This document shows positions 1-40,465 of a DNA stretch of 64,000 nt, piece after piece. Location: contig NW_027139442.1 in the NCBI RefSeq assembly GCF_035084215.1, positions 4,154,001 to 4,218,000 of the forward strand. The letters are read 5' to 3'. A model generated the notes under the pieces. The model did no database searches, was not told the DNA's origin, and saw nothing but the letters and a program-made list of their open reading frames with translations. The DNA comes from Heptranchias perlo. Taxonomy: Eukaryota. Each line of letters starts with the position of its first letter. Within the stretch, counting starts at the first letter, position 1. The translations under genes and the position numbers were made by a program.

Positions 1-147
1 TAGATTTTTGGACAAGGAAATCAAGGGATATGGGGATCGGGCAGTAAAGTGGTGTGGAGGTACAAAATCAGCCATGATCGATTGAATGGCGGAGCAGGCT
101 CGAAGGGCCCTAAGGTCACCTGCTGCTCATATTTCATCTGTTCTTAT
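1..147 (+). mobile_element. CR1/HER1-type LINE 3' end fragment
   Basis: tcagccatgatc..gaatggcggagcaggctcgaagggc..tgttcttat tail; the same tail recurs at ~62070-62143 and inverted at ~570-650. Confidence 0.7.
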
Positions 148-13176: not shown

Positions 13177-13206
13177 ACCGGTCAAGATTTAATCTGGTAA
13201 CCCAAA

Positions 13207-13247
13207 GGCTCTTTTCAGAGCCACCCACTGTATCTATGAAAGGGCTG
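13207..13247 (+). terminator. Histone 3' stem-loop + HDE
   Basis: GGCTCTTTTCAGAGCC ACCCA, then AAAGGGCTG. Confidence 0.95.
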
Positions 13248-13279
13248 AAGCGAGTCAGAGCTTAATTTAATAATAAATC

Positions 13280-13547
13280 ATGATGTGGAGATGCCGGTGA
13301 TGGACTGGGGTTGACAATTGTAAACAATTTTACAACACCAAGTTATAGTCCAGCAATTTTATTTTAAATTCACAAGCTTTCGGAGATTTCCTCCTTCCTC
13401 AGGCAAATGTTTCAAGATTTCCTCCTTCCTCAGGCAAATGTTTCCTCTTGAAACATTTGCCTGAGGAAGGAGGAAATCTCCGAAAGCTTGTGAATTTAAA
13501 ATAAAATTGCTGGACTATAACTTGGTGTTGTAAAATTGTTTACAATT
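13280..13547. mobile_element. Palindromic Penelope-like terminal-repeat insertion with TSD
   Basis: 102-bp perfect inverted repeat (13316-13417 / 13446-13547); ttaataataaatc duplicated at 13267-13279 and 13546-13558; second copy at 40270. Confidence 0.75.
13455..13495 (+). ncRNA. Minimal type-I hammerhead ribozyme-like motif (mirrored on the - strand at ~13368-13408)
   Basis: atttgc CTGAGGA a GGAG-gaaat-CTCC GAAA gc TT gtgaat. Confidence 0.55.
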
Positions 13548-13603
13548 AATAATAAATCGCTTAGTTAGAAACTAACGATATGTTGTTGAATACAAATGAT
13601 CTG

Positions 13604-27484: not shown

Positions 27485-27516
27485 TACAGTACTCGCTTAC
27501 GGCCAGTAGATGTCAG
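27485..27516 (+). promoter_or_regulatory. CTCF-like site at satellite edge
   Basis: TACAGTACTC-gcttacgg-CCAGTAGATGTCAG. Confidence 0.55.
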
Positions 27517-27749
27517 TCTCTAGCACTGTACATGAGAGTGGGGTTGATTCTGTCATTGTCAGTCTCTGGTACTGTGCGTGAGTTTGGGATTCATTCAGTA
27601 TCTGTCAATCTCTGGTACTGAGTGTGAGCATGGGGTATGTTCTGCATCTTTCAGTCTCAGGTACTATATATAAGTGATGGATTCATTCTGTATCTGTCAG
27701 TCTCTGGTACTTTATGTGAGTGTGGGATTATTTCTGTATCTGTCATTTT

Positions 27750-30700
27750 CTGGTGCTGTATGTGAGTGTGGGATTCATTCTGTATCTGCCATTCTCTGCT
27801 ACTTTATCTCAGTGTGGGATTCATTCTGTCATTCAGTCTCTGAGACAATGTGCAAGTCTGGATTCATTCTGTATTCTTATTTCAGTTAACAGTATCGTAT
27901 TTGAAACTGTATCTTTAATGCTTTAAATTATATATAGTTCTTCGTCGATTATTTACGTTGTTAATATGGATACATTTTTCGATTTTCTTTATTCAAACAA
28001 TGTGTGAGAGTTTTGGAGCAGTATTATATCTTAATCTCTGAACTGTATTGTGAATGATAATGTACGTTTCAATCTGTTCCCGGTGAAATTATTGGACTGG
28101 TATGTAATGAGTAGCTCAGTCTGCAATAATGGGATTAATTCTGTATCTGAGTCTAACACGACATGTGATTTTTGGACACGATATGTAATATGTAGCTCAT
28201 CCTGCACTAAAGGAATTGATACTGTATCTATCAGTCTTATACTGTATGAAGTTTTTGGACTGGTGAGTAACATGTAGTTCAGTCTGTGCTAATGGAATTG
28301 ATATTATATCTTTGAGTCTGATAAGGTATGAGATTCTTGGATTGCTATATAATGTGTGGCTCAGACTGCACTAATGAAATCGATACTGTACCTTTCAGTC
28401 TAACATTGTATGAGATTGTTGGACTGTTATATAATGTTTAGCTCAGGCGGTGCTAAAAGAATTTAAACTATATCTTTCAGTCTGATCATTTATGTGATTT
28501 TTGGACTCGTATGTAATGTGTAGCTCAGTCTGCACCAATGGTATTGATAATATTTATATCTGTATAATACTGAGTATTTACCAATATATCTAATATGTAG
28601 CTCAGTCTGCACTAATGGAATTTATACTTTATCTTTCAATCTGATACTATGAGATCTTTGGACTGGTCTGTAAAGTGTAACTCAGTCTGCAGTAATGTGA
28701 CTGTGACATTCATTCTGTATCCGTCAGTCTCTGGTACTTTTTGAGTGAGAGATTCATTCTGTATCTGTCAGTCCCTGGTACTGTGCGCGAGTGAGATTCA
28801 TTCTGTTCCGGATACTGTATGTGAGTGTAGGATTCATTCTATATCTGTCAGTCTCTGGTACTGAGTGTGAGCATGGGGTATATTCTGCATCTCTCAGTCT
28901 CAGGGGTATTACATATAAGTGATGGATTCATTCTGTATCTGTCAGTCTCTGGTGCTATCTGTGTGTGTGGGATTCATTCTGTATCTGCCATTCTCTGCTA
29001 CTTTATCTCAGTGTGGGATTCATTCTGTAATTCTGTCTCTGAGACAATGTGCAAGTCTGGATTCATTCTGTATTCTTATTTCAGTTTACAGTATCGTATT
29101 TGAAACTGTATCTTTAATGCTTTAAATTATATATAGTTCTTCGTCGATTATTTACGTTGTTAATATGGATACATTTTTCGATTTTCTTTATTCAAACAAT
29201 GTGTGAGAGTTTTGGAGCAGTATTATATCTTAATCTCTGAACTGTATTGTGAATGATAATGTACGTTTCAATCTGTTCCCGGTGAAATTATTGGACTGGT
29301 ATGTAATGAGTAGCTCAGTCTGCAATAATGGGATTAATTCTGTATCTGAGTCTAACACGACATGTGATTTTTGGACACGATATGTAATATGTAGCTCATC
29401 CTGCACTAAAGGAATTGATACTGTATCTATCAGTCTTATACTGTATGAAGTTTTTGGACTGGTGAGTAACATGTAGTTCAGTCTGTGCTAATGGAATTGA
29501 TATTATGTCTTTGAGTCTGATAAGGTATGAGATTCTTGGATTGCTATATAATGTGTGGCTCAGTCTGCACTAATGAAATCGATACTGTACCTTTCAGTCT
29601 AACATTGTATGAGATTGTTGGACTGTTATATAATGTTTAGCTCAGGCGGTGCTAAAAGAATTTAAACTATATCTTTCAGTCTGATCATTTATGTGATTTT
29701 TGGACTCGTATGTAATGTGTAGCTCAGTCTGCACCAATGGTATTGATAATATTTATATCTGTATAATACTGAGTATTTACCAATATATCTAATATGTAGC
29801 TCAGTCTGCACTAATGGAATTTATACTTTATCTTTCAATCTGATACTATGAGATCTTTGGACTGGTCTGTAAAGTGTAACTCAGTCTGCAGTAATGTGAC
29901 TGTGACATTCATTCTGTATCCGTCAGTCTCTGGTACTTTTTGAGTGAGAGATTCATTCTGTATCTGTCAGTCCCTGGTACTGTGCGCGAGTGAGATTCAT
30001 TCTGTTCCGGATACTGTATGTGAGTGTAGGATTCATTCTATATCTGTCAGTCTCTGGTACTGAGTGTGAGCATGGGGTATATTCTGCATCTCTCAGTCTC
30101 AGGGGTATTACATATAAGTGATGGATTCATTCTGTATCTGTCAGTCTCTGGTGCTATCTGTGTGTGTGGGATTCATTCTGTATCTGCCATTCTCTGCTAC
30201 TTTATCTCAGTGTGGGATTCATTCTGTAATTCTGTCTCTGAGACAATGTGCAAGTCTGGATTCATTCTGTATTCTTATTTCAGTTTACAGTATCGTATTT
30301 GAAACTGTATCTTTAATGCTTTAAATTATATATAGTTCTTCGTCGATTATTTACGTTGTTAATATGGATACATTTTTCGATTTTCTTTATTCAAACAATG
30401 TGTGAGAGTTTTGGAGCAGTATTATATCTTAATCTCTGAACTGTATTGTGAATGATAATGTACGTTTCAATCTGTTCCCGGTGAAATTATTGGACTGGTA
30501 TGTAATGAGTAGCTCAGTCTGCAATAATGGGATTAATTCTGTATCTGAGTCTAACACGACATGTGATTTTTGGACACGATATGTAATATGTAGCTCATCC
30601 TGCACTAAAGGAATTGATACTGTATCTATCAGTCTTATACTGTATGAAGTTTTTGGACTGGTGAGTAACATGTAGTTCAGTCTGTGCTAATGGAATTGAT

Positions 30701-33700
30701 ATTATGTCTTTGAGTCTGATAAGGTATGAGATTCTTGGATTGCTATATAATGTGTGGCTCAGTCTGCACTAATGAAATCGATACTGTACCTTTCAGTCTA
30801 ACATTGTATGAGATTGTTGGACTGTTATATAATGTTTAGCTCAGGCGGTGCTAAAAGAATTTAAACTATATCTTTCAGTCTGATCATTTATGTGATTTTT
30901 GGACTCGTATGTAATGTGTAGCTCAGTCTGCACCAATGGTATTGATAATATTTATATCTGTATAATACTGAGTATTTACCAATATATCTAATATGTAGCT
31001 CAGTCTGCACTAATGGAATTTATACTTTATCTTTCAATCTGATACTATGAGATCTTTGGACTGGTCTGTAAAGTGTAACTCAGTCTGCAGTAATGTGACT
31101 GTGACATTCATTCTGTATCCGTCAGTCTCTGGTACTTTTTGAGTGAGAGATTCATTCTGTATCTGTCAGTCCCTGGTACTGTGCGCGAGTGAGATTCATT
31201 CTGTTCCGGATACTGTATGTGAGTGTAGGATTCATTCTATATCTGTCAGTCTCTGGTACTGAGTGTGAGCATGGGGTATATTCTGCATCTCTCAGTCTCA
31301 GGGGTATTACATATAAGTGATGGATTCATTCTGTATCTGTCAGTCTCTGGTGCTATCTGTGTGTGTGGGATTCATTCTGTATCTGCCATTCTCTGCTACT
31401 TTATCTCAGTGTGGGATTCATTCTGTAATTCTGTCTCTGAGACAATGTGCAAGTCTGGATTCATTCTGTATTCTTATTTCAGTTTACAGTATCGTATTTG
31501 AAACTGTATCTTTAATGCTTTAAATTATATATAGTTCTTCGTCGATTATTTACGTTGTTAATATGGATACATTTTTCGATTTTCTTTATTCAAACAATGT
31601 GTGAGAGTTTTGGAGCAGTATTATATCTTAATCTCTGAACTGTATTGTGAATGATAATGTACGTTTCAATCTGTTCCCGGTGAAATTATTGGACTGGTAT
31701 GTAATGAGTAGCTCAGTCTGCAATAATGGGATTAATTCTGTATCTGAGTCTAACACGACATGTGATTTTTGGACACGATATGTAATATGTAGCTCATCCT
31801 GCACTAAAGGAATTGATACTGTATCTATCAGTCTTATACTGTATGAAGTTTTTGGACTGGTGAGTAACATGTAGTTCAGTCTGTGCTAATGGAATTGATA
31901 TTATGTCTTTGAGTCTGATAAGGTATGAGATTCTTGGATTGCTATATAATGTGTGGCTCAGTCTGCACTAATGAAATCGATACTGTACCTTTCAGTCTAA
32001 CATTGTATGAGATTGTTGGACTGTTATATAATGTTTAGCTCAGGCGGTGCTAAAAGAATTTAAACTATATCTTTCAGTCTGATCATTTATGTGATTTTTG
32101 GACTCGTATGTAATGTGTAGCTCAGTCTGCACCAATGGTATTGATAATATTTATATCTGTATAATACTGAGTATTTACCAATATATCTAATATGTAGCTC
32201 AGTCTGCACTAATGGAATTTATACTTTATCTTTCAATCTGATACTATGAGATCTTTGGACTGGTCTGTAAAGTGTAACTCAGTCTGCAGTAATGTGACTG
32301 TGACATTCATTCTGTATCCGTCAGTCTCTGGTACTTTTTGAGTGAGAGATTCATTCTGTATCTGTCAGTCCCTGGTACTGTGCGCGAGTGAGATTCATTC
32401 TGTTCCGGATACTGTATGTGAGTGTAGGATTCATTTTATATCTGTCAGTCTCTGGTACTGAGTGTGAGCATGGGATATATTCTGCATCTCTCAGTCTCAG
32501 GGGTATTACATATAAGTGATGGATTCATTCTGTATCTGTCAGTCTCTGGTGCTATCTGTGTGTGTGGGATTCATTCTGTATCTGCCATTCTCTGCTACTT
32601 TATCTCAGTGTGGGATTCATTCTGTAATTCTGTCTCTGAGACAATGTGCAAGTCTGGATTCATTCTGTATTCTTATTTCAGTTTACAGTATCGTATTTGA
32701 AACTGTATCTTTAATGCTTTAAATTATATATAGTTCTTCGTCGATTATTTACGTTGTTAATATGGATACATTTTTCGATTTTCTTTATTCAAACAATGTG
32801 TGAGAGTTTTGGAGCAGTATTATATCTTAATCTCTGAACTGTATTGTGAATGATAATGTACGTTTCAATCTGTTCCCGGTGAAATTATTGGACTGGTATG
32901 TAATGAGTAGCTCAGTCTGCAATAATGGGATTAATTCTGTATCTGAGTCTAACACGACATGTGATTTTTGGACACGATATGTAATATGTAGCTCATCCTG
33001 CACTAAAGGAATTGATACTGTATCTATCAGTCTTATACTGTATGAAGTTTTTGGACTGGTGAGTAACATGTAGTTCAGTCTGTGCTAATGGAATTGATAT
33101 TATGTCTTTGAGTCTGATAAGGTATGAGATTCTTGGATTGCTATATAATGTGTGGCTCAGTCTGCACTAATGAAATCGATACTGTACCTTTCAGTCTAAC
33201 ATTGTATGAGATTGTTGGACTGTTATATAATGTTTAGCTCAGGCGGTGCTAAAAGAATTTAAACTATATCTTTCAGTCTGATCATTTATGTGATTTTTGG
33301 ACTCGTATGTAATGTGTAGCTCAGTCTGCACCAATGGTATTGATAATATTTATATCTGTATAATACTGAGTATTTACCAATATATCTAATATGTAGCTCA
33401 GTCTGCACTAATGGAATTTATACTTTATCTTTCAATCTGATACTATGAGATCTTTGGACTGGTCTGTAAAGTGTAACTCAGTCTGCAGTAATGTGACTGT
33501 GACATTCATTCTGTATCCGTCAGTCTCTGGTACTTTTTGAGTGAGAGATTCATTCTGTATCTGTCAGTCCCTGGTACTGTGCGCGAGTGAGATTCATTCT
33601 GTTCCGGATACTGTATGTGAGTGTAGGATTCATTCTATATCTGTCAGTCTCTGGTACTGAGTGTGAGCATGGGGTATATTCTGCATCTCTCAGTCTCAGG

Positions 33701-35060
33701 GGTATTACATATAAGTGATGGATTCATTCTGTATCTGTCAGTCTCTGGTGCTATCTGTGTGTGTGGGATTCATTCTGTATCTGCCATTCTCTGCTACTTT
33801 ATCTCAGTGTGGGATTCATTCTGTAATTCTGTCTCTGAGACAATGTGCAAGTCTGGATTCATTCTGTATTCTTATTTCAGTTTACAGTATCGTATTTGAA
33901 ACTGTATCTTTAATGCTTTAAATTATATATAGTTCTTCGTCGATTATTTACGTTGTTAATATGGATACATTTTTCGATTTTCTTTATTCAAACAATGTGT
34001 GAGAGTTTTGGAGCAGTATTATATCTTAATCTCTGAACTGTATTGTGAATGATAATGTACGTTTCAATCTGTTCCCGGTGAAATTATTGGACTGGTATGT
34101 AATGAGTAGCTCAGTCTGCAATAATGGGATTAATTCTGTATCTGAGTCTAACACGACATGTGATTTTTGGACACGATATGTAATATGTAGCTCATCCTGC
34201 ACTAAAGGAATTGATACTGTATCTATCAGTCTTATACTGTATGAAGTTTTTGGACTGGTGAGTAACATGTAGTTCAGTCTGTGCTAATGGAATTGATATT
34301 ATGTCTTTGAGTCTGATAAGGTATGAGATTCTTGGATTGCTATATAATGTGTGGCTCAGTCTGCACTAATGAAATCGATACTGTACCTTTCAGTCTAACA
34401 TTGTATGAGATTGTTGGACTGTTATATAATGTTTAGCTCAGGCGGTGCTAAAAGAATTTAAACTATATCTTTCAGTCTGATCATTTATGTGATTTTTGGA
34501 CTCGTATGTAATGTGTAGCTCAGTCTGCACCAATGGTATTGATAATATTTATATCTGTATAATACTGAGTATTTACCAATATATCTAATATGTAGCTCAG
34601 TCTGCACTAATGGAATTTGTACTTTATCTTTCAATCTGATACTATGAGATCTTTGGACTGGTCTGTAAAGTGTAACTCAGTCTGCAGTAATGTGACTGTG
34701 ACATTCATTCTGTATCCGTCAGTCTCTGGTACTTTTTGAGTGAGAGATTCATTCTGTATCTGTCAGTCCCTGGTACTGTGCGCGAGTGAGATTCATTCTG
34801 TTCCGGATACTGTATGTGAGTGTAGGATTCATTCTATATCTGTCAGTCTCTGGTACTGAGTGTGAGCATGGGGTATATTCTGCATCTCTCAGTCTCAGGG
34901 GTATTACATATAAGTGATGGATTCATTCTGTATCTGTCAGTCTCTGGTGCTATCTGTGTGTGTGGGATTCATTCTGTATCTGCCATTCTCTGCTACTTTA
35001 TCTCAGTGTGGGATTCATTCTGTAATTCAGTCTCTGAGACAATGTGCAAGTCTGGATTCA
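27750..35060. repeat. 1199-bp higher-order tandem repeat, ~6 near-identical copies
   Basis: Identical ORFs recur at 28031, 29230, 30429, 31628, 32827 and 34026 (period 1199); the unit is built from 46- and 82-bp satellite subunits. Confidence 0.97.
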
Positions 35061-37300
35061 TTCGGTGTTCTTATTTCAGTTTACAGTATCGTTTTTGAAA
35101 CTGTAGATTTAATAATTTAAATTATATACAGTTATTCATCGAGTATTTAATTTGTTAATATGGATGCACTTTTCAATTTTCTTTAATCAAACAATGTGTG
35201 TGAGTTTTGGAGTAGTATTACATCTTAATCTATGAACTTTATTGTGAATGATAATGTACCTTTCAATCTGTTCCCGGTGAAATTATTGGACCCTTATGTA
35301 ATGTTTAGTTTATTCTGCAATAATGGGATTAATTCTGTATCTCAGTCTAAACTGTATGAGATTTTTGGACTGGTGTGTAACATGTAGCTCTGTCTGTGCT
35401 AATGCAATTGATATTGTATCTTTGAGTCTGATCAGGTATGAGATTCTTGGACTGCTATATAATGTGTGGCTCAGTCTGCACTCATGAAATCGATACTACA
35501 TCTTTTAGTCTAATATTTTATGGGATTTCCAGTCTGGTATGTAATGTACAGCTCAGGCAGTGCCAATAGAATTGAAACTCTATTTTCCAGTCTGATCATT
35601 TATGAGGTTTTTGGATTCGTATGTAATGTGTAGTTCAGTCTGTACCAATGGTATTGATACTGTTTATTTCAGTATAATACTCCATGAGTATTTACCAATA
35701 TATCTAATATGTAGCTCAGTCTGCGCTAATAGAATTGATACTGCACCTTTAAATCTGACACTATGAGATTTTTGGACTGGTATGTAATGTGTAACTAAGA
35801 CAGCATTGATGGAATTGATGAGGTATCTTTCGATCTGCGACTGTGAGATTTTTGCTCTGGTACGTAATGTGTAACTCAGCCTGCACTAATGTAGGTGACT
35901 CTGAGATTCATTTTGTATCTCTCAGTCTCTGGTACTGACTGTGAGTGTGGGATTCATGCTGTAACTGTCACTCTCTGGTACTCTATTTGATTGTGGGATT
36001 CATTCTGCATTTCCATTCTCTAGTACTGTGTGTGGGTGTTGAATTATTTCCATATATCCAGTTTCTCATAATGTATGTTGGTGTGAGATTCATACTGTAT
36101 CTGTCAGTCTCTGGTACTGTGTGTGAGTGTGAGATTAATTCTGTATCTGCCAATCTCAGGTACTGCGTGTGAGTGTGGCATTCATTCTGTATCTCTCAGT
36201 CTCTGGCACTGTGTGTGAGTGTGGGATTCATTCTGTATCTGTCAGTCTCTGGTGCTGTGTGTGAGATTCATTCTGCATCTGCCAATCTCAGGTACTGTGT
36301 GTGAGTGTGGGATTCATTCTGTATCTGTCAGTCTCTGGTATTGTGTATGAGTGTGAGATTCATTCTGTATCTGCCAAACTCAGGTACTGTGTGTGAGATT
36401 CATTCTGTATCTGCCAATCTCAGGTACTGTGTGTGAGTGTGGGATTCAGTCTGTATCTGTCAGTCTCGAGTACTGTGTGTGAGTGTGAGATTCATTCTGT
36501 ACTCTGTCAGACTGTGGTACTGTACGTGAGTGTGGTCTTCATTCTGTATCTGCCAATCTCAGGTACTGTGTTTGAGTTTGGGATTTATTTTGTATCTCTC
36601 AGTCTCTAGTGCTTTATGAGAGTGTGGGATGGTTTTGCTATCTGTCAGTCCTTGGTACTGTATGTCAGTGTGTGATACATTCTGTATCTGACATCTCTAG
36701 CACCATACTTGAGTGTTGGATTCAATCTGTGTCTGGCAAACTCTAGTACTGTCTGTGAGTGTGGGATTCATTCTGTGTTTGTGTGTCTCTGTACTGTATC
36801 TGAGTGTGAGATTCATTCTGTATCTGTATATAATTATTCTCTCAGATTACATTATGGTGTTCAATACTCTAGCTTTACGATCTTAATGTTTAAACAGTTT
36901 TTTCCCAGTATTTAATTGGTAAACATGGATACACTTTAGGATTTGATGCTGGAGGTTTTAATCAGAAGATTTGTGTTTTTTGGACGAGTATCATATCAGT
37001 ATCTCTGTGAGCACTATTGTGAATGATAATATTTCTTTCAAACTGATATGGTGACATTTTTGAATTGGTATATAATGTGTCGATCAGCCTGCAGTAAAGG
37101 AATTGATACTGTATCTTTAAATCTCATGCTATGAGTATATTATAAACTGGTATCTAATTTGTTTCTCAGGTTACACTGTCACAGCATTTCTCAATCTGAT
37201 ATTGTACATGATTTTTGGACTTGCAATTTGTATTCGAATGGTACACTATTCGAATGGATACTGCGTGTATTAAACTCCCGCGTGGGTGTGAGGGTTCTGG
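35060..37300 (-). repeat. Diverged continuation of the 46/82-bp satellite
   Basis: gtgggattcattctgtatctgtcagtctctggtactgtgtgtga units, densest at 35900-36830. Confidence 0.88.
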
Positions 37301-38665: not shown

Positions 38666-40269
38666 CGATGGAAACTTTCCCCAATTCGAATTTTTCAGAG
38701 TCTGAGCAAATCCGAGAAGGATCCAGAATGAATGTGAAGTTTCCTCCCCCCGAGACAAAGGAACAGTGCAGCCAACTCCTTCTCACACACAGTATGTATA
38801 TTATCACTCTCAGAAAGGTCAAAGGGAATGGGGTCCACAGGCAGTGCAGGAACAGGCACCAGAATGGAAACAGATGGGATTCCACCAGTGCCTAACGCTG
38901 GAATCCAGACTGACTTTACAATCTCTCACTATTAAACTCGATGTTTCCATCCCTGCTGTTTCTCTCGGTATCTTTTGATGGTAAAAGGCCTTTTATAGAT
39001 AAAATGGGCGGCTGTGAAATGAGCCAATGGGTTCTGTTCATTCTTGGCTCCCTGACTGATAAAGCAACGCGTGGCTCCGAAACTGGAGGGAGGATTTCTC
39101 AAACCAATCCTGGAGAAACAGCGGAGGAAAGTGGGAGTCCGTATGTTTGCTGCGACCGTGTGGGATTAACATCTGACAGCAACAGTCCCAGATTATTTCA
39201 ATCGGAATGAAACTCTCGGTCACTGAGAGAAATACTGAATGGGCCTGAGCTGCAAAGATTACAAAGGGTGAAACATGCAAGAGATGGTTAAATGTGTGAC
39301 ACTGTCCCTGAGAATGGGATTAATAATGTGTCTGTCTCTGAAATAATTTTAGTGAGAGATGAGACTGCATCTTCTGTCACTCCACCTTGGAATAGCAATT
39401 GGAATGGAATATTTTTTCCAATTTGCTACTGGGTGAAAACTGGACATTCCAGGTCAGTTTTTCTCTCTCTCTTTTGCACAGCATATGAATGTGGGATCCT
39501 GTTATTGAGTGTGAAACGGACATACTGATAGGAAGTGTGAGACTGATGCATTGTCTGTGTGTGTGTCTCTGTCTGTCTGTTTATCTGTCGGTCTGTCTTT
39601 CTCTCTCTCCAGCGCTGTAAATGAAAGCGAAATACTGTTACTGATCTTAATATCGACACCCTGGTGGAAGGTAAAGACTGATTCAGTGTTTGTGAACAGA
39701 CCTCCGGTGCTGTTGGTGAGACGGTCACTGTCCCTTCTATTATGTATGAGCCGGATTGACGGTGCATTTATCAGTCTCCAGTCCAATAAGGAAAGGTGGG
39801 GAGAAACAGCCTGGAACGGCCTGACACTGGACTGCCTGTTAGTGTTGAATTTATTCTGTAACTAGCCGTCTCTGGGTGTTGAGAATGGGACGGATAGGAC
39901 ACCAGTTACTATTGTCTGTCAGGCAGTTTAGGAGGAGAGAGAAACACAGAGAGACTGGAAGAGCCCAGAGCGGAAAATTTGTATTATCGTCTTAACCAAA
40001 CATATTTCTGTGTACGAAAGTATAATATTTTAAAACCAGATGTGAATTATCACACCAACAGCTGTGATTGGCTCCTGCCCCTGAATCTGGGGACCAGACA
40101 CTGTGAGGAGCGCCTGCCTCAGAGTGTTTAACAGTTACTGAGCTGGGAAACGACAACTAACCCCCGAGAATCTGCTGCACAGGCCGAGCGGGGAGGAAAG
40201 CCTGTCCCGGGAATTGTCAATCTGGCGACCAGTTTGACCTGTGAATGTGAAGATGTGAACATTGTGTCA

Positions 40270-40465
40270 TGATGTGGAGATGCCGGTGATGGACTGGGGT
40301 TGACAATTGTAAACAATTTTACAACACCAAGTTATCGTCCAGCAATTTTATTTTAAATTCACAAGCTTTCGGAGGCTTTACCTGACGAAGGAGGAAGCCT
40401 CCGAAAGCTTGTGAATTTAAAATAAAATTGCTGGACTATAACTTGGTGTTGTAAAATTGTTTATA
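40270..40465. mobile_element. Palindromic Penelope-like terminal-repeat insertion with 12-bp TSD
   Basis: ~69-bp inverted repeat (40310-40378 / 40395-40463); aacattgtgtca at 40258-40269 and 40466-40477; same 5' leader as the 13280 copy. Confidence 0.75.
40377..40415 (+). ncRNA. Minimal type-I hammerhead ribozyme-like motif
   Basis: tttac CTGACGA a GGAGG-aag-CCTCC GAAA gc TT gtgaa. Confidence 0.55.

Follow-up and report, generated by a model that had tools for sequence, protein, structure and literature searches.

A head-to-head insert lies downstream of a histone H2A gene

The DNA analysed here (the window) is a stretch of 64,000 nucleotides from Heptranchias perlo (contig NW_027139442.1, positions 4,154,001 to 4,218,000 of the forward strand). 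It contains a histone cluster (1860-56110) with intact H2A, H2B and H4 ORFs and nine stem-loop matches; H2A-like copies at 1860-2314 and 55660-56110 have no listed H2A ORF and are possibly pseudogenes. A tandem array of six copies with a period of ~1199 bp occupies 27500-35100, amid GC-rich simple-repeat families. Downstream of one intact H2A ORF lies a palindromic insert, the features of which are collected in Table 1. The purine-rich histone downstream element (HDE) of this gene begins at 13239. An earlier reading, made from the sequence alone (the sequence-only reading), had put the insert ~35 nt past the HDE; the place is right, and the measured distance is 33 nt after 13247.

Table 1. Features of the insert, its host gene and a second stub in the window
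Feature	Position	Strand	Remarks
Histone H2A ORF, intact, 129 aa	12787..13176	+	Host context
3' stem-loop and downstream element of the histone gene, intact, upstream of the insert	13202..13247	+	Rfam Histone3, 41 bits
Left target-site duplication, 13 bp	13267..13279	+	At the tailed start site, the element RNA agrees with its last 2 nt
PLE 'tail', 38 nt (36 nt unpaired)	13280..13317	-	In the parent, finishes at the AT of the ORF's ATG
Left arm, pLTR end, antisense on the + strand	13318..13417	-	Arm plus tail, 138 nt, identical to the L031 pLTR
Minimal type-I hammerhead motif (left arm)	13368..13408	-	Predicted cut between 13374 and 13373
'Spacer', exact 27-nt copy of 13387-13413 with a period of 31 nt	13418..13444	-	Incomplete third hammerhead half inside
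Right arm, 101-nt pLTR end without tail	13445..13545	+	Identical to the L031 pLTR
Minimal type-I hammerhead motif (right arm)	13455..13495	+	Predicted cut between 13489 and 13490
Right target-site duplication	13546..13558	+	First 2 nt match the element at the untailed start site
Second, independent palindromic stub, family-mate, CUGACGA variant	40269..40465	.	Tail left, 11-12-bp duplication

A repeat search recovered the 102-bp perfect inverted repeat, the 28-nt spacing and the unpaired leader of ~36 nt that the sequence-only reading had described. The two arms of 102 nt (13316-13417 and 13446-13547) are 100% complementary across a gap of 28 nt, and the hairpin has a fold z-score of -25.1, with 0 of 200 shuffles equally stable. 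The insert is flanked by a 13-nt direct repeat, TTAATAATAAATC. The span proposed earlier, 13280-13547, is correct at its start and too long at its end, since the insert stops at 13545 and the next two positions belong to the duplication; the duplication itself, given before as 11-13 bp, is real and measures 13 bp when judged from empty paralogous sites. The spacer has the proposed length of 28 nt and is not unique sequence: 13418-13444 is an exact copy of 13387-13413, plus one base, and this duplicate likely arose by RT slippage on an AGA microhomology. The unpaired leader is the antisense of 38 nt that finish at the AT of the parent ORF's ATG, and corresponds to the 'tail' of a Penelope-like element (PLE). 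The insert consists of two 5'-truncated PLE ends placed head to head, one tailed with 38 nt and the other untailed. An assembly artefact was ruled out by the exact duplication, the canonical ends and 80 further pairs of like plan. In contigs of sequencing runs, 32 pieces out of more than 38,000 included none spanning either junction, a result that bears neither for nor against the insert.

The H2A unit is multi-copy, and in all nine paralogs fetched, of 39 others listed, the 13-mer is single-copy and the insert is absent. A search of the genome with the junction pattern returned 20 paralogous H2A sites, 19 of them empty and the window site alone filled. These empty sites set the bounds of the insert (13280-13545) and the 13-bp length of its duplication, and indicate that it is young, as had been supposed: the arms are identical to a parent pLTR, and the host unit is 98-99.7% identical to the empty paralogs (98.1-99.7% over the flanks). 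Established histone 3' processing puts this position outside the mature mRNA. Lying beyond the processing signals, and filled at 1 of 20 paralogous sites, the insert is not supported as having any tie to H2A function, and the locus itself is ordinary, one among many young stubs.

The arms derive from an abundant PLE family with an intact parent ORF

With the 102-nt arm as query, 44 matches at 98-100% identity were obtained (40 scored of 799 candidates). A 21-mer from the arm end has 66,373 exact matches in the genome (control, 0); the counts are 10,641 for a 36-mer from the window's subfamily and 17,451 for a 33-mer from a second one. Longer family copies extend into an RT ORF. At locus L184, tandem 3081-bp units carry two intact 902-aa ORFs and three pLTR ends (parent ORF, L184:4386-7091, minus strand), and L031 is a further tandem or partial-tandem parent with a pLTR. 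Each window arm is found without change within the L031 pLTR and has one mismatch with L184.

In Pfam, the parent ORF matches RVT_1 (E=3e-10), the sole domain found; GIY-YIG gave no Pfam match at E<=1, and a PDB sequence search with the parent ORF as query gave 0 matches. The Atlas clusters nearest to the C-terminus partly carry GIY-YIG (score 0.96), and the protein contains DKG, YIDD, CX4CxxC, VYL..C..C..YIG and two later histidines. The CCHH endonuclease motif is present as VYLIRCRKGCPRAWYIG at 791, with two Cys between GIY and YIG, followed by His in MNGH (817) and GEHF (834). The linker between RT and endonuclease contains CHGNLCKTC at residue 753, a CX2-5CxxC motif that, in the available text of PMC8557442, marks Neptune/Nematis and is missing from Penelope/Poseidon, the latter including the anole enzyme PAc. 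On this linker motif, the sequence suggests a parent of the Neptune/Nematis type; a Poseidon assignment (Penelope/Poseidon clade) was ruled out by the presence of the zinc-finger-like motif. A single ORF with RT plus GIY-YIG at its C-terminus, tandem parents, and an inverted 5'-truncated copy with a one-sided tail and a TSD together correspond to an EN+ PLE. The proposed Penelope-like origin is supported, the autonomous RT/GIY-YIG parent that was to be looked for exists in this genome, and the label 'non-autonomous' has to be dropped: the insert is a truncated product of an autonomous family, and the centres differ among copies. In the second stub of the window (Table 1), the untailed arm is the longer one and a single mismatch separates the arms.

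Each arm carries a minimal type-I hammerhead motif

The hammerhead elements of each arm read, on both strands, as the sequence-only reading had them: ATTTGC, CTGAGGA, an additional A, GGAG-G/AAA/T-CTCC, GAAA, GC, TT and GTGAAT. The stem II given there (GGAG/CUCC) is kept and extended by a fifth pair, which is G-U in the window copy. The conserved core, the extra nucleotide after A9, G10.1-C11.1 and the palindromic 15.2-16.2 are features of the minimal type-I hammerhead; the earlier assignment to this class, with a palindromic AGCU, matches the min-HHR, and variation across subfamilies appears to preserve the structure. A search for hammerheads had been suggested as a check, and an Rfam scan returned no hammerhead family match at E<=10; its 14 matches were mostly miRNA-hairpin look-alikes below gathering scores. 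The hammerhead call therefore rests on the consensus and on the published min-HHR description.

In 86 motifs collected with no structure filter, the core columns are invariant in 83-86, N7 is G in 71 and C in 15, and changes in helix I are mostly wobble swaps; the fifth helix-II pair is GC in 53, AU in 16, GU in 13 and AC in 4. In a set of 19 variants, which were hand-picked and of which 18 came from a stem-filtered scan, 94.7% of cells are paired (0/500 shuffles), and both sides change in 3 of 11 pairs only (50/500 shuffles).

Sense RNA beginning at the inferred start is predicted to fold into the hammerhead helices, with a probability of 0.56-0.91 for 10 of the 11 pairs. The H2A read-through RNA had been expected to form a long dsRNA hairpin or to self-cleave. 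The hairpin is borne out in the predicted fold; self-cleavage is not, as the one sense and one antisense motif pair mutually and every hammerhead pair has a predicted probability of 0.0. In this model, the hammerhead in the window hairpin is likely inactive, buried by the 102-bp hairpin.

Dimeric cleavage is reportedly the subject of work by Lunse et al. from 2017, and the predicted AAGCUU self-duplex has an energy of -4.3 kcal/mol. The predicted cut site is spanned by 93 of 100 unbiased sampled arms, indicating that integrated templates were mostly uncut or religated. Pattern matches for arms starting at the predicted cut number 47 at position 591 and 50 at 593, against 22 and 12 at the control positions 588 and 610, a two- to fourfold difference. 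Among 402 very short palindromes, 50 were inspected by eye; their centres are mostly AAGCTT (11) and AATT (9), and about 10 have an end at 591-593.

Most head-to-head pairs carry one tail

Across the family, the 3' ends of arms fall into two sharp classes, untailed at 644-649 and tailed at 681-686 (reference coordinates). With all loci fetched, exactly one tail was found in 81 of 85 head-to-head pairs, two tails in 2 and none in 2, an excess of single tails over independent choice (p=1e-19) in a set that probably includes a few unrelated neighbours. The sampled loci, selected with exact patterns, come from the initial 5-26 Mb of a single chromosome. An apparent duplication of 12-13 bp accompanies 64 of the 81 pairs. 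Palindrome junctions are shaped by microhomology (AAACATTT, AGATCT, AAGCTT), which blurs the end positions.

These pairs bear on an alternative origin from the same family, in which one cDNA, or an antisense template, folds back and primes itself to make the palindrome, and the tail comes from endonuclease resolution near the ACAATTGT palindrome. Fold-back self-priming was proposed for Adineta Penelope (PMC3846280) and in PMC8557442, as far as the available portions of these papers go, and it would fit arms that are near-perfect copies and the many pair centres that are small palindromes. In 19 pairs with both arms >200 nt, the ends lie within 21 nt of each other in 10, and this symmetry also agrees with fold-back; the coupled ends suggest the use of one RNA template. 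The other 9 pairs are asymmetric. Of the 24 pairs that measure at least 300 nt, 6 have an untailed arm >100 nt longer than its partner and 5 a tailed arm with such an excess (second-subfamily arm lengths in pairs being measured against a reference 75-88% identical). The excess length falls on either arm, which speaks against fold-back of the tailed cDNA as an obligatory step, since that cannot yield an untailed arm exceeding its partner by >100 nt. Furthermore, loops at AAACATTT centres, judged by eye, divide evenly between tailed (3) and untailed (3) arms as their source, and in the short palindrome L203/L204 (G000:C1:4915401-4915491) the arms differ at hammerhead N7 (G versus C), a subfamily-variable base, so that this pair may record two different RNA templates. 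On balance, fold-back appears unlikely, although it is the strongest of the competing explanations and may have run on an antisense template.

Other pairs have unusual dimensions or centres. L087 (G000:C1:3118800-3126900) joins arms of ~2950-3030 bp head to head, close to two full units, and the pair centres of L067, L094, L175, L208, L211 and L215 contain 35-215 nt of non-element sequence, apparently captured filler DNA.

Short 5' ends follow the TATA box

A TATAAATG (TATA) motif is kept upstream of the hammerhead, and its flanks diverge. The window's subfamily was represented by 95 distinct arms from the first 100 places listed of 10,641. Their 5' ends lie within 540-575 in 45 cases, with 25 at 551-557 and a mode at 552, which is TATA+30 and 10 nt before the hammerhead core. 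The other ends comprise 9 at 519-535 and 3 within 370-518, and 38 arms run further; apparent ends at 360-395 are variable T-run artefacts, and these arms were either classed as long or kept in the 370-518 bin. The ends at 540-548 (11 of 95) and those at 519-535 would need upstream starts or read-through templates. In the window copy itself, the arm ends map to TATA+24/25 and lie upstream of the mode by 4-6 nt; only the slipped piece ends at TATA+29.

For the second subfamily, 89 arms were taken from 70 loci, which cover most of the first 100 listed among its 17,451 places; TATA and core are mostly 46-47 nt apart, compared with 40 nt in the window's subfamily. Here, 35 of the 89 arms end at TATA+29..31 on an initiator-like TC|ATTT, 15-17 nt before the core; no arm ends between -85 and +9, and 21 run further. 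These three positions also hold 17 of 30 short arms scored as solo. As judged from the two subfamilies, the 5'-end mode points to a dependence on the TATA box and not on the ribozyme. A transcription start ~30 nt after TATA is the textbook spacing. Such a start would place the RT start sites ~95 and ~133 nt from the RNA 5' end, so that initiation in the first pLTR would give stub-sized products. The pLTRs of Adineta contain TATA and initiator-like motifs (PMC3846280, available part), and D. virilis Penelope is described in the available part of PMC2377424 as having an internal promoter without TATA.

Could the hammerhead itself, through stalling of RT on the structure or through cleavage, have made the hot spot of 5' ends in place of a transcription start? 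The hot spot does lie within 5-17 nt of the core, and ends at the predicted cut exceed controls two- to fourfold. However, the mode sits equally far from TATA in both subfamilies but not equally far from the core, a stall would be expected 3' of the structure and not beyond it, and the cut site is spanned by 93 of 100 arms, all of which makes this explanation distinctly improbable. As a separate observation, three independent arms (L126, L165, L175) start at an identical base, 3 nt before the TATA box, and one of them bears a stuttered repeat of the TATA region.

A proposed route to the stub

We consider it probable that the insert is a stub of an abundant endonuclease-bearing PLE, formed in one event in which both cut strands primed RT, with synthesis likely ending by run-off at the 5' end of the RNA. 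The DNA itself displays arms identical to a parent pLTR, a parental RT and GIY-YIG ORF, a duplication, an empty site, and one tailed and one untailed end. The 81 one-tail pairs among 85, together with short ends that track the TATA box, point to priming on both strands and to run-off at the RNA 5' end. Weighing against this are the ends of the window copy at TATA+24/25, the arms that end at 540-548 and 519-535, the 9 asymmetric long pairs and the absence of a strand preference in the anole enzyme in vitro. By this route, the endonuclease would make a staggered cut ~12-13 nt wide in AT-rich DNA. One 3' end would prime at the start site beside the ORF's ATG, giving rise to the tail, and the other would prime 38 nt upstream, with ~2 nt of microhomology at each site. 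Both cDNAs would then pass the uncut hammerhead and reach the RNA start, ~30 nt after the pLTR TATA box. In the window copy, one cDNA would have slipped back 31 nt; the two cDNA ends would then be joined by microhomology. The stub, which has neither TATA box nor ORF, is likely a dead end, and its hammerheads would therefore be passengers.

The architecture is already published as the PLE insertion plan. The origin of the inverted ends and of the one-sided tail is stated as unresolved in the available parts of PMC8557442 and PMC11167929, and the family statistics are a useful constraint on this open insertion mechanism. No paper stating the run-off reading was found in the literature searched, the coverage of which left out most subscription journals. 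Going one step further, the stubs may be a fossil record of a dimeric RT-endonuclease that used one RNA, two start sites 38 nt apart, one target strand each, and a common 5' end; we hold the chances of this broader proposition to be about even. If it is true, a single process would account for the tail on one side, the inverted head-to-head arrangement and the many solo hammerheads; the start of transcription could be read off DNA alone from TATA+30 junctions, and germ-line ribozyme cleavage would have left its trace in a small minority of ends. With tens of thousands of stubs in the genome, the window copy is of value as one of a large set of cases. The tracking of TATA and the pairs, with their single tail, their coupled 5' ends and an excess length that may fall on either arm, yield sharp predictions for an existing in vitro system.

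Comparison with known systems

That system is the anole PLE protein (PAc, Poseidon of Anolis carolinensis), which, according to the accessible text of PMC11167929, nicks and extends both strands in vitro and uses two internal start sites a tail apart, with no strand preference for either. The window family resembles PAc in its two tail-separated start sites, AT-rich targets, uncleaved RNA template and minimal hammerhead. In PAc, however, synthesis starts 111-118 nt into the ORF, whose ATG is part of the hammerhead (same source), whereas the window family has its tail end at the ATG, 92 nt beyond the predicted cut.

Head-to-head inverted 5'-truncated pLTR ends, a one-sided tail (30-40 bp), a short TSD, TATA and initiator-like pLTR motifs and tandem parents are shared with Adineta Pen2a and EN+ PLE insertions, in the portions of PMC3846280 and PMC8557442 at hand. 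Compared with these, the window stub has arms of ~100-140 nt and no ORF sequence, and its family has a very high copy number and ends that track TATA. The min-HHRs of metazoan PLEs (Cervera and De la Pena 2014, PMC4209133, partial text) are dual motifs on opposite strands, 100-700 bp apart, with low activity even as dimers; CUGANGA, the extra nucleotide between 9 and 10.1, G10.1-C11.1, the palindromic helix III and the dual opposite-strand arrangement recur in the window. Position H17 sets the window family apart from that description, being U in 86 of 86 sampled motifs.

Non-LTR retrozymes likewise have a pLTR-derived type-I hammerhead and no ORF, and are direct tandem repeats in the available text of bioRxiv 10.64898/2026.07.22.740005, whereas the window insert pairs two inverted ends within a duplication, and centres in its family are specific to the copy; a non-LTR retrozyme was ruled out on this inverted arrangement, the sole direct repeat being the 31-nt slippage repeat. 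A self-cleaving, non-autonomous palindromic element of retrozyme- or MITE-like kind, mobile as a unit or regulating the H2A read-through RNA, would suit the intact motifs on both strands, the derivation of retrozymes from pLTRs (same preprint) and the depth of family sequence in contigs of sequencing runs guessed to be RNA, but is very improbable given centres that vary from copy to copy, the absence of tandem monomers, a stub without TATA, hammerhead pair probabilities of 0.0 in the read-through RNA and 1 filled site among 20 paralogous H2A sites. Elsewhere in the genome, a slippage-bearing palindrome (L025/L026/L032) has been copied within a 3343-bp host tandem repeat.
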